A stretch of 64,000 bases of DNA, from sequence record PQ615101; one strand, given 5' to 3'. The notes under the pieces were generated by a model. It did not search any database, was not told the DNA's origin, and was given only the letters and a program-made list of their open reading frames with translations. Below, one piece after another: positions 37,215 to 46,716 of the stretch. This DNA is from Shigella phage SP21535. The translations under genes were made by a program, and so were the position numbers. Position 1 is the first letter of the stretch; each line of letters opens with the position of its first letter.

Positions 37215-37911
<697 letters not shown>

Positions 37912-37923
37912 TTTCACAAAGTT

Positions 37924-37953
37924 GTTTACACGTTGATGAGGTAGTGATACTAT
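37924..37953 (+). promoter_or_regulatory. early promoter (GTTTAC -35, TG-extended -10) within inverted repeat
   Basis: GTTTAC 37924-37929; TGaTACTAT; flanking GATGAG/CTCATC stem. Confidence 0.5.
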
Positions 37954-37983: not shown

Positions 37984-38271
37984 ATGAAAACTTTCAAAGA
38001 ATTTACTTCTACAACTACCCCGGTTTCTACTATTACCGAAGCTACTCTTACTTCTGAGGTTATTAAAGCAAATAAAGGACGAGAAGGTAAACCAATGATT
38101 AGTCTGGCTGATGGTGAAGAAATCAAAGGTACTGTTTACCTAGGTGATGGGTGGTCTGCTAAAAAGGATGGTGCTACAATCGTTATCTCTCCTGCTGAAG
38201 AAACTGCGTTGTTTAAAGCTAAACACATTTCTGCGGCACATCTCAAAATTATTGCTAAAAATCTTTTGTAA
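37984..38271 (+). CDS. ipI: internal protein I (capsid-targeted, injected)
   Basis: 95 aa; N-terminal capsid targeting sequence ending ...ITE before mature Ala; gene order. Confidence 0.85.
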   Translation: MKTFKEFTSTTTPVSTITEATLTSEVIKANKGREGKPMISLADGEEIKGTVYLGDGWSAKKDGATIVISPAEETALFKAKHISAAHLKIIAKNLL

Positions 38272-38290
38272 TAAATAATTTCACAAAGTT

Positions 38291-38320
38291 GTTTACATAG
38301 GGTTTTAGTTGTGATACTAT
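38291..38320 (+). promoter_or_regulatory. early promoter stem-loop cassette
   Basis: GTTTAC 38291-38296; TGATACTAT; ATAGGG/CCCTAT stem. Confidence 0.5.
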
Positions 38321-40585: not shown

Positions 40586-40662
<77 letters not shown>

Positions 40663-41000
40663 GACAAGAAACCGGGTCGCTACCGGTAAGTCGTCGGACT
40701 GATGTTCCCTGGGTAAGGAATTGCGTTAATAAATCTTTATGATTTGTTGATGCCCTCTTACATCACAGCAGAAACGGCGCACCGAATTATCGATTCGAGG
40801 AAATATCTTTGCCGTAAGCCGAGTAGCGTTTTTGACGGAACGTTCGGATATGGTCGAGATATGGCCTTTTAAAAATATTAAGTAGCGTCAACTGCTTAAT
40901 AACCGGGTTCGAATCCCGGCGTTTCGTACAAACACTTGCCTTAGCAGGTGGAACCCCGACAAGGTTGCCGCAAGGCTTTAGCCCCGACCGAAAGGTTGGG
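40663..41000 (+). ncRNA. structured stable RNA region (T4 species 1/2 RNA-like, tRNA-like T-arm)
   Basis: No ORF; GC-rich helices; CCGGGTTCGAATCCCGG T-arm-like element at ~40902-40918; precedes terminator. Confidence 0.4.
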
Positions 41001-41006
41001 GCTTTT
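40981..41006 (+). terminator. rho-independent terminator, GNRA-capped hairpin
   Basis: GCCCCGACC-GAAA-GGTTGGGGC followed by TTTTT. Confidence 0.65.
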
Positions 41007-41009
41007 TGG

Positions 41010-41017
41010 TATAAATA
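41010..41017 (+). promoter_or_regulatory. late promoter TATAAATA
   Basis: Exact motif 40 nt upstream of ATG 41057. Confidence 0.45.
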
Positions 41018-41056
41018 TAGTAGTATATTAAATCACGAATTAAAACAGGAAATAAG

Positions 41057-41515
41057 ATGAAATCATATGCTCAATTTTTAAATGAAGCATCCGCTTCAGA
41101 TGTTCGCGCTGTAGCAACTGCTGCTATTAAAGCTGGTAAATATTCTTATAAAGATGCTTCTGACGAATCTCGGTACAAGTTCTACGACGATATGAGAGCT
41201 GAAGGCTTTGTGGGTAACTATGTTACCACCGCCTGGAAAAGCCTGGTTGCTACTGGTGCGGCTTTCGAAAAACCTTCTGGTAAACCTGCTCCTAAGGCTG
41301 ACCCTAAAGCAGCACAAGAAAAAAATATTGCTAAAGGAATTATTTCTAGGTATGAAGCAATTCTTAAAGAACTTTTGGTAATTAAGACCGAAGGCCAGAA
41401 ACTTGCGCGAGCTCATAGTTTCAAAGATAACCCACATGCTCATGACCTAGAGTATGTTGAAGATCTCCAAAAAATCATCAAAGACCGCATTTGGTCTGCT
41501 AAACAAATTAAATAA
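41057..41515 (+). CDS. internal-protein-like capsid-targeted protein
   Basis: 152 aa; N-terminus MKSYAQFLNE-A resembles the IP capsid targeting sequence; late promoter upstream. Confidence 0.55.
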   Translation: MKSYAQFLNEASASDVRAVATAAIKAGKYSYKDASDESRYKFYDDMRAEGFVGNYVTTAWKSLVATGAAFEKPSGKPAPKADPKAAQEKNIAKGIISRYEAILKELLVIKTEGQKLARAHSFKDNPHAHDLEYVEDLQKIIKDRIWSAKQIK

Positions 41516-41523
41516 CATTCTTA

Positions 41524-41549
41524 GCCCCAGCCGAAAGGTTGGGGCTTTT
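41524..41549 (+). terminator. rho-independent terminator, near-identical copy of 40981 hairpin
   Basis: GCCCCAGCC-GAAA-GGTTGGGGC followed by TTTT. Confidence 0.65.
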
Positions 41550-41725
41550 GGTATCTAGGCCTTTCTGGACCTCTCTAGGCATCATTTAGTTTATACCCTT
41601 TATAATATATTATCCTATCCTTTAATTGCCCATCCCTGCCCTAGAATTCCCTAAAACTTCCCCGTTCTTCCATGGTACTATACAACTATCAACTACTGAT
41701 ACAGAAAAACAACTTGGAGAATGAA

Positions 41726-45492: not shown

Positions 45493-46023
<531 letters not shown>

Positions 46024-46027
46024 AGTT

Positions 46028-46058
46028 GTTTACTTTCTCCTAGAACTGTGATAGTATA
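46028..46058 (+). promoter_or_regulatory. early promoter stem-loop cassette
   Basis: GTTTAC 46028-46033; AACTGTGA/TCACAGTT inverted repeat around -10. Confidence 0.45.
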
Positions 46059-46100
46059 TTCACAGTTACTAATTAAAATATTTACATTTAAAGGAAACAT

Positions 46101-46575
46101 ATGAAAACATATCAAGAATTTATTACTGAAGCAGCTATTAATTCTCAAAATTATTGCTGAATCTTTTACTGATCTTTTGAAATTTAAAAAAGGACAGAAA
46201 ATTACTGCTGTATTAGATGATGGTACAGAAGTTGAGATGGATGTACAGGGATATAATTATGCAGTAGATGGAAAACTGTATAATAAATCTCATGCTAAAT
46301 TTGATTCATTTGATGATTTTGTTAATACAGTTGAAGATGAAAAAACTCGTCGATCCATTGCAACTGGTGATGCTAAGGTTCTTATGGCGCATGGACATGA
46401 ACGTATTCGCGCTAAACAGAATAAAATGGGTGAAGATAATTTCGCATTAGTTGGTTATCAATCTGGTAAACAAACTTATGGTTATCAGCGTACTGCTACC
46501 ATGTATAATAAAAATGGTAAAATCGCTTTCGTGAATAGTAAAGGTTCTATTCAGTACGTTAAATCGTTCAAATAA
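46101..46575 (+). pseudogene. internal-protein-like gene interrupted by +1 frameshift at an A-run
   Basis: MKTYQEFITEA... reads 19 codons to TGA at 46158; downstream frame open to 46575; removing one A of AAAA 46147-46150 fuses them. Confidence 0.45.
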
Positions 46576-46716
46576 TATGGGAACAACCTGGACCTCATGA
46601 TTCTGTGAGGGATTCCCGCCAACCTGTAATAAGGTCGAGCCCAAGTGCGGTAATGGGTAAATACAGAAATGGACAATTCATGCGCCATGGAATGGCCCAA
46701 ATTTAGAGAGAATAAA

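Follow-up and report, generated by a model that had tools for sequence, protein, structure and literature searches.

The question raised by a 152-aa gene at the end of the tRNA cluster of Shigella phage SP21535 is whether this product, annotated in related phages as hypothetical, is an internal protein (IP) of the T4 type, packaged in the head and delivered with the DNA, and how the gene comes to lie between two almost identical hairpins. The window (the whole stretch of DNA that was analyzed, 64 kb of record PQ615101) belongs to Tequatrovirus; its top DNA match is Escherichia phage vB_EcoM_SYGD1, with 99.9% identity, and its orientation is reversed relative to the T4 numbering. The gene order on the + strand is 57A/57B, ipI, trna.4/.3/.2, seven tRNAs, segB, tRNA-Arg (3' limit at 40662) and rnaD/rnaC, followed by the cassette with the 152-aa ORF and then by e.8 to e.2, nudE and e. 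The rnaD/rnaC genes, at the tail of the tRNA cluster, form the left flank of a polymorphic site. The relevant features are the following.

37984-38271, + strand: ipI (Pfam IPI_T4, 6e-53)
40670-40935 (approximate limits), + strand: rnaD/rnaC stable RNA genes, from alignment to annotated T4 and RB27 rnaD/rnaC
40980-41009, + strand: hairpin 1, intrinsic terminator of the tRNA/rnaC unit and left repeat copy (folding, terminator scan)
41010-41017, + strand: T4-type late promoter TATAAATA, abutting the T-run of hairpin 1 (sequence)
41043-41048, + strand: ribosome-binding site AGGAAA (read from the sequence)
41057-41515, + strand: 152-aa ORF, phrog_2280 (PHROG match 2e-53, 511 records, AlphaFold2 model, dN/dS)
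41057-41086, + strand: leader MKSYAQFLNE, a propeptide resembling a capsid targeting sequence (CTS), with a predicted gp21 site after E10 (LNE-A; here and below the hyphen before the last letters marks the predicted cut), from comparison with the IPII and IPIII leaders
41523-41551, + strand: hairpin 2, intrinsic terminator of the cassette and right repeat copy (folding, terminator scan)
41552-41725, + strand: right flank, upstream of e.8, common to the empty T4 site (alignment)

The two near-identical GAAA-capped hairpins that the preliminary description placed on either side of the gene are indeed present, each 22 nt long, at 40981-41002 (GCCCCGACCGAAAGGTTGGGGC) and 41524-41545 (GCCCCAGCCGAAAGGTTGGGGC). 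Both consist of a 10-bp stem including one G.U pair, a GAAA loop and a subsequent T-run, both are detected by a terminator scan, and the predicted folding energies are -21.7 kcal/mol (z = -5.3) for the first and -20.6 kcal/mol (z = -4.4) for the second. Apart from stem positions 6-7 (GA versus AG) and a single tail T, the copies are the same, and the whole direct repeat spans about 35 nt, TTAGCCCCnnCCGAAAGGTTGGGGCTTTT(T)GGTAT. A degenerate search allowing up to 3 mismatches identifies 2 copies in the 64 kb, compared to 0 in 100 shuffles. An Rfam search of the region detects tRNAs only, with nothing over the hairpins or the ORF at the gathering score. The late promoter, also anticipated in that description, is TATAAATA, located 39 nt 5' of the ATG; its position is retained in most of the related loci and in Klebsiella phage L022, and in some relatives CATAAATA takes its place. 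A late promoter, a ribosome-binding site, one gene and a terminator make 41010-41551 a late transcription unit complete in itself. Given that the gene has its own TATAAATA directly 3' of a strong terminator, its transcription should be late only, which is the timing expected of an IP, i.e., late enough for proheads.

Comparison of the cassette position across T4-like genomes, suggested earlier as a check, reveals presence/absence and copy-number polymorphism with break-points at the hairpin. In T4, the rnaC-e.8 interval is devoid of genes and contains a single hairpin, followed at once by GGTATCTAAGCCTTTCC; the PST site is empty in the same way, again with a single hairpin, and in neither T2 nor T6 does this site contain a CDS. 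In SP21535, hairpin 2 is followed by GGTATCTAGGCCTTTC, which is the flank found after the single T4 hairpin. Thus, either the window carries a precise insertion of the late promoter, the ORF and the second hairpin, or T4 carries a precise deletion of the same segment. A survey of the rnaC-e.8 site that covered 19 loci identifies the following states.

Empty
One cassette, 152-157 aa
Two cassettes, of which the second (187-188 aa) starts MKTYAEFLTE-AAKLP... and has an unrelated terminator at the end
A leaderless 184-aa gene (phrog_2143) and a 205-aa gene starting MKTYNEFLNESVLNE-AGV...
One cassette and the 184-aa gene

All leader-bearing genes found at this site belong to phrog_2280; they are of three types, which are connected to each other by BLASTP searches via intermediates. 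With no CDS in T2, T4, T6 and PST and one or two copies elsewhere, the locus is polymorphic and the gene is non-essential, as is typical of the IP class. The 184-aa phrog_2143 gene, which is present in the T4-like IMG/VR contigs L013-L016 at the rnaC-e.8 site, alone or beside a phrog_2280 gene, encodes a protein with a hydrophobic N-terminus, many Trp and Cys residues and no leader; in these contigs, the first hairpin is the variant GGCCCTTCCGAAAGGTTGGGCC.

The preliminary description further suggested that the repeats could drive cassette exchange, as in hyperplastic ip loci. The coincidence of the break-points with the hairpin makes hairpin-driven exchange plausible, but the long flanks are an equally good substrate for recombination. 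Likewise, the comparison with the ip loci is apt with respect to the polymorphic cassette but not with respect to its location, which is a third site (rnaC-e.8) and neither of the two classical ip loci. An alternative that we consider almost, though not quite, an even bet is that the two hairpins are terminators of adjacent units, alike by copying or gene conversion, and that the cassette is gained and lost via the rnaC-side and e.8-side flanks in mixed infections rather than via the 35-nt repeat. Indeed, hundreds of bases of the flanks are conserved across phages at more than 90% identity, the two-cassette loci end with an unrelated terminator and yet have the same right flank, the hairpins of the Klebsiella locus are unrelated, and two natural deletion chimeras have their break-points elsewhere. 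However, the empty sites of T4 and PST, with one hairpin followed by GGTATCTA, are the exact product of recombination between the repeat copies, and repeated regulatory blocks bracket ipI in the same genome as well. A role of such blocks in the shuffling of T4-type genes has been proposed (PMC4122927) and, as reported in papers that cite their work, Repoila et al. (1994) made observations on the T4 IP locus similar to the idea of PeSL elements.

The chimeras (proteins P0011 and P0012, from metagenome/Logan assemblies) are a fusion of trna.3 with the C-terminus of the 152-aa ORF product and a fusion of its N-terminus with nudE. They imply that natural deletions have removed the entire tRNA-segB block in the first case and e.8-e.2 in the second; the break-points are within the 152-aa ORF and not at the hairpins.

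The borders of the cassette resemble PeSL elements (Arbiol 2010; Comeau 2014) in that a terminator-plus-promoter motif is located at the borders of a variable gene and the indels of close relatives coincide with this motif. In contrast to the PeSLs, which carry an early, sigma-70-type promoter, the promoter here is the late TATAAATA; there are two copies in 64 kb rather than a dispersed family; and the stem GCCCCnnCC/GGTTGGGGC with its GAAA loop differs from the PeSL stem-loop sequences of PMC4122927. The class of elements defined by an early promoter with a stem-loop and many repeats in hyperplastic regions therefore does not include the repeats described here.

The ORF at 41057-41515 encodes 152 aa and starts, as previously read, with MKSYAQFLNE-A (the translated N-terminus is MKSYAQFLNEASASD). 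The gp21 protease cleaves after L/I-x-E (PMC9026906), and amber-suppressor work of the Black laboratory on the 10-residue CTS of IPIII assigned targeting mainly to residues 4 and 7 and processing to residues 8 and 10 (PMC9026906). The T4 IPII and IPIII leaders both read MKTYQEFIAE-A. In the 152-aa ORF, Y4, F7, L8 and E10 agree with the four experimentally critical positions, in support of the earlier view that this leader resembles a capsid targeting sequence; the complete leader, M1 K2 S3 Y4 A5 Q6 F7 L8 N9 E10 followed by A11, contains the aromatic residue 4, Phe 7, L/I 8 and Glu 10 that characterize the IP class. In a six-frame scan of the window, leader-type starts are found in ipI and in the 152-aa ORF, and additionally in a frameshifted ipIV that falls below the scan length.

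Within the family alignment, M1, K2, Y4, F7 and E10 are invariant and, despite indels (FLNE-A, FLNEvvLNE-A, FLMTE-A, FLTE-Q), the L/I/M-x-E junction is restored in all leader-length variants. Relatives in other genera, with about 25-50% identity, keep [YF]4, F7, [LIV]8 and E10, and the leaders of distant relatives read MLKFNEFLAE-G, MKFKEFLAE-A, MLEYSEFLKE.. and MISFNEFVDGNLITE-S. The DNA that encodes the leader of the 152-aa ORF is unlike the leader DNA of ipI and ipIV of the same genome, so that conservation of the leader operates at the protein level. One internal L-x-E, L103-K-E105, is invariant as well; IPI*, IPII* and IPIII* have none, and about one is expected by chance.

A tBLASTn search started with the 152-aa protein identifies about 511 phage records, and the surrounding DNA matches 679 records. 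This breadth, combined with the dN/dS of 0.09-0.17 against seven homologues, which is indicative of purifying selection, shows that the ORF is a real gene. The reverse-strand ORF at 41096-41443 (115 aa) was considered and rejected as the true gene, given that conservation, codon-level selection and PHROG membership all favor the + frame. The sole PHROG match is phrog_2280, for which PHROGs gives no function; in a 60-row spread sample of the matching GenBank records, every row carries the label "hypothetical", and neither PHROGs nor these sampled records provide a function, although an earlier mention within the original ip4-ip13 set (Repoila 1994) is possible. No match is detected in Pfam or NCBIfam. 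Among 1.84 billion representatives searched with a profile HMM, 11 proteins are retrieved, all of them T4-like phage relatives or fragments, and none provides a link to any described function.

The predicted mature form (142 aa, pI 9.4, no Cys) is similar to IPI*, IPII* and IPIII*, which have pI values of 9.0-9.65 and no Cys. The AlphaFold2 model (pLDDT 76) is all-helical and consists of a three-helix N-domain (residues 11-70, pLDDT 81-91), a Pro/Lys/Ala-rich linker (71-82) and a C-terminal helical hairpin (83-149). A search of BFVD and PDB with this model detects family members only, in addition to generic ferritin-like helical matches with E > 0.7. The two parts of the protein evolve at very different rates: the N-domain accumulates about 10 times more replacements than the C-terminal part (dN 0.20-0.36 versus 0.02-0.04), and the C-terminal module, with omega of 0.02-0.10, is common to all paralogues. 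In two comparisons, dS is discordant between the gene halves, with N-half and C-half values of 2.8 and 0.18 for L004 and of 0.10 and 0.56 for L014. This sharp difference points to intragenic mosaicism, with recombination near the linker that swaps N-domains.

Homologues outside the close relatives of SP21535 show a comparable organization. In a Klebsiella T4-like phage, a family member directly follows the tRNA cluster, behind a UUCG-capped terminator and TATAAATA, with an unrelated hairpin on its 3' side; given that this homologue is flanked by two unrelated hairpins, the hairpin repeat is not required for the unit. Yersinia phage fHe-Yen9-01 possesses two tandem family members, and phiR1-RT appears to lack the gene, with no CDS of matching size annotated at the locus. 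In Yersinia phage fD1, the g140 gene at the same locus encodes an 80%-identical homologue that is listed as particle-associated by LC-MS/MS, in a preparation from which DenV, lysozyme e, NudE and 672 host proteins were recovered too (PMC8309999, Table S3). These data show expression and co-purification rather than packaging. A literature search for a stringent virion proteome of a carrier phage yielded only this non-stringent data set; the paper on the fPS phages includes no proteome.

Comparison with T4 IPI, IPII and IPIII and the Ip4-Ip10 series of the T-even phages (Repoila et al. 1994; Mullaney and Black 1996; Silas et al. 2025) reveals several shared characters: a leader of about 10 residues of the MK[ST][YF]x[EQ]F[LI]xE-A type; a small, basic, Cys-free and non-essential product; and a polymorphic cassette between repeated regulatory sequences that is present in some T-even-type phages only. 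Beyond the leader, there is no similarity: a BLASTP search against IPI-IPIII and the PST proteins IpIV, IpV and IpVI yields no match for the 152-aa ORF. The protein falls outside the named Ip families, i.e., IPI (PF11634, phrog_4363), IpIV (phrog_3155), IPII, IPIII, IpV and IpVI; in PHROGs, its phrog_2280 is distinct from those of IPI and IpIV. Unlike the genes of the T4 IPs, it is located at the rnaC-e.8 site, rather than the ipI site or the ipII/ipIII site and, unlike ipI of the same genome, it is bounded by terminators and has its own late promoter. Recent literature describes two Ip loci in T-even phages, with ip1-ip10 tested (PMC12373910). A search of the supplementary files of Silas et al. 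(PMC12373910), where ip4-10 were tested, detects no sequence motifs of the phrog_2280 family. The gene is a candidate member of the IP type by leader, expression and cassette behavior, lies outside every named Ip sequence family and occupies a third site. T4 Alt and other head proteins processed by gp21 have the L/I-x-E cleavage site that is predicted here, and delivery with the DNA is proposed for the 152-aa product as well. However, gp22, gp67, gp23, gp24 and Alt are core phage components (PMC9026906), in contrast to the optional cassette gene described here; in addition, Alt is processed at both termini (PMC9026906), and no enzyme-like domain is present in the 152-aa ORF product.

Taken together, these observations are best compatible with the possibility that the 152-aa ORF product is a packaged, gp21-processed and injected T4-type internal protein that probably disables a host defence, encoded in a cassette that is exchanged at the duplicated terminator or its flanks; we consider this reading probable, with roughly two chances in three. 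Under the proposed scheme, hairpin 1 would stop the early and middle tRNA-rnaC transcripts, and the abutting late promoter would give rise to a monocistronic late mRNA that terminates at hairpin 2. The product would then be made during head assembly, and residues 1-10 would take it into the prohead core, where gp21 is predicted to cut after Leu-Asn-Glu10 and to release a basic, helical protein of 142 residues that starts at Ala11. We infer that the mature protein stays inside the head alongside the DNA until it is injected into the host. Its most likely job, by analogy with Ip1, Ip2 and Ip3, would be to disable a first-response host defence against the incoming DNA. The preliminary statement that IP-type proteins are often anti-restriction or anti-defence factors agrees with published results, given that a different GmrSD type IV enzyme is inhibited by each of Ip1, Ip2 and Ip3 (PMC12373910); inhibition of a GmrSD variant by IPIII is reported also in PMC9391042. 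By this analogy, the 152-aa ORF product may inhibit a GmrSD variant. The variable, fast-evolving N-domain might determine target specificity, and the conserved C-terminal helical module might perform a family-wide function. The duplicated terminator would mark the cassette ends, and recombination between its copies or between the longer flanks could remove, add or swap cassettes.

A different role of a packaged protein has to be weighed. The leader might direct the product into the head, where it would have a structural or physical function, as a basic, DNA-associated component of the head core involved in charge neutralization, condensation or ejection, with the linker acting as a histone-tail-like DNA binder. 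The basic character of the mature protein and the KPSGKPAPKADPKAAQEK linker, which is longer in the paralogues, are in line with such a role, and the very strong constraint on the C-module (dN 0.02-0.04, omega 0.02-0.10) fits a phage-internal partner better than a fast-evolving host target. Yet the gene is dispensable, being missing in T2, T4, T6 and PST, the roughly 10-fold faster divergence of the N-domain and the variable copy number are the pattern of an accessory host-range gene, and all three T4 Ips of known function are defence inhibitors, which together make a structural role unlikely. It is less likely still, and in our view improbable, that the product is an ordinary late cytoplasmic protein, which is not packaged and whose leader-like start was left behind by recombination in the conserved 5' blocks of ip genes and does not function in targeting: the proteomics of fD1 is non-stringent and PHROG, Pfam and NCBIfam assign no function, but such a relic would decay, whereas this leader persists across genera at 25-50% identity, its indel variants regenerate the L/I-x-E-A junction, and at the DNA level it is unlike the leaders of ipI and ipIV, indicative of conservation of the protein.

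The family, whose leader matches the packaging tag of the T4 internal proteins, is represented in about three quarters of the phage records with a match to this region (511 of 679), and its absence from T2, T4 and T6 may explain why it has been overlooked. Ip1-10 show no inhibition of some GmrSD groups (Silas et al. 2025, PMC12373910), and several active groups have no known inhibitor, which makes phrog_2280 a candidate anti-defence factor and a candidate host-range determinant. A more speculative extension, which we put forward only tentatively and regard as rather doubtful in its full form, is that phrog_2280 represents a third locus for injected proteins, adjoining the tRNA cluster of T4-like phages of E. 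coli, Klebsiella and Yersinia, and that its modular members, which combine interchangeable N-domains with a common leader, linker and C-terminal helical module, inhibit defences without a known phage counter-measure, such as these GmrSD groups. The carrier phages are of a type widely used for therapy, and the compact promoter-tag-terminator unit may also be useful for loading cargo into T4-type heads, as a natural place for insertion with a ready expression context.

Several observations pertain to the other ip genes of the window. The ipI gene is bracketed by a direct repeat of the early-promoter block AATTTCACAAAGTTGTTTACA (37911-37931 and 38278-38298), with GTGATACTATTA after each copy, in agreement with the observations of Repoila et al. 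(1994) as reported by citing papers. This is the classical ip-cassette layout with early-promoter blocks as borders, in contrast to the 152-aa gene, which is bordered by terminators and a late promoter. The ipIII, ipII and denV genes, which follow gene e in T4, are missing at 46023-46669 of the window, and the frameshifted ipIV alone is found between e and a vs.8-like gene, so that ipI and the 152-aa ORF are the only intact leader-bearing genes within the 64 kb. This ipIV-type gene (46102-46575), a homologue of PST IpIV (phrog_3155), has an A-run near 46146 that is longer by one base (CAAAATT versus CAAATT); the frame reads MKTYQEFITEAAINSQNYC followed by a stop, with the remainder of the gene in another frame. 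The extra A is shared by 0 of the 424 matching phage records (best match 99.5%, 200/201 nt) and represents either private pseudogenization or a homopolymer sequencing error.

On the other side of the cassette, around 41660-41665, 31 bp that T4, G8, RB27 and Pu-Krd-SF3 possess are deleted, and with them the GTTTAC -35 box of a T4-type early promoter upstream of e.8. Given the loss of this box, e.8 of SP21535 may rely on read-through or on some other promoter.
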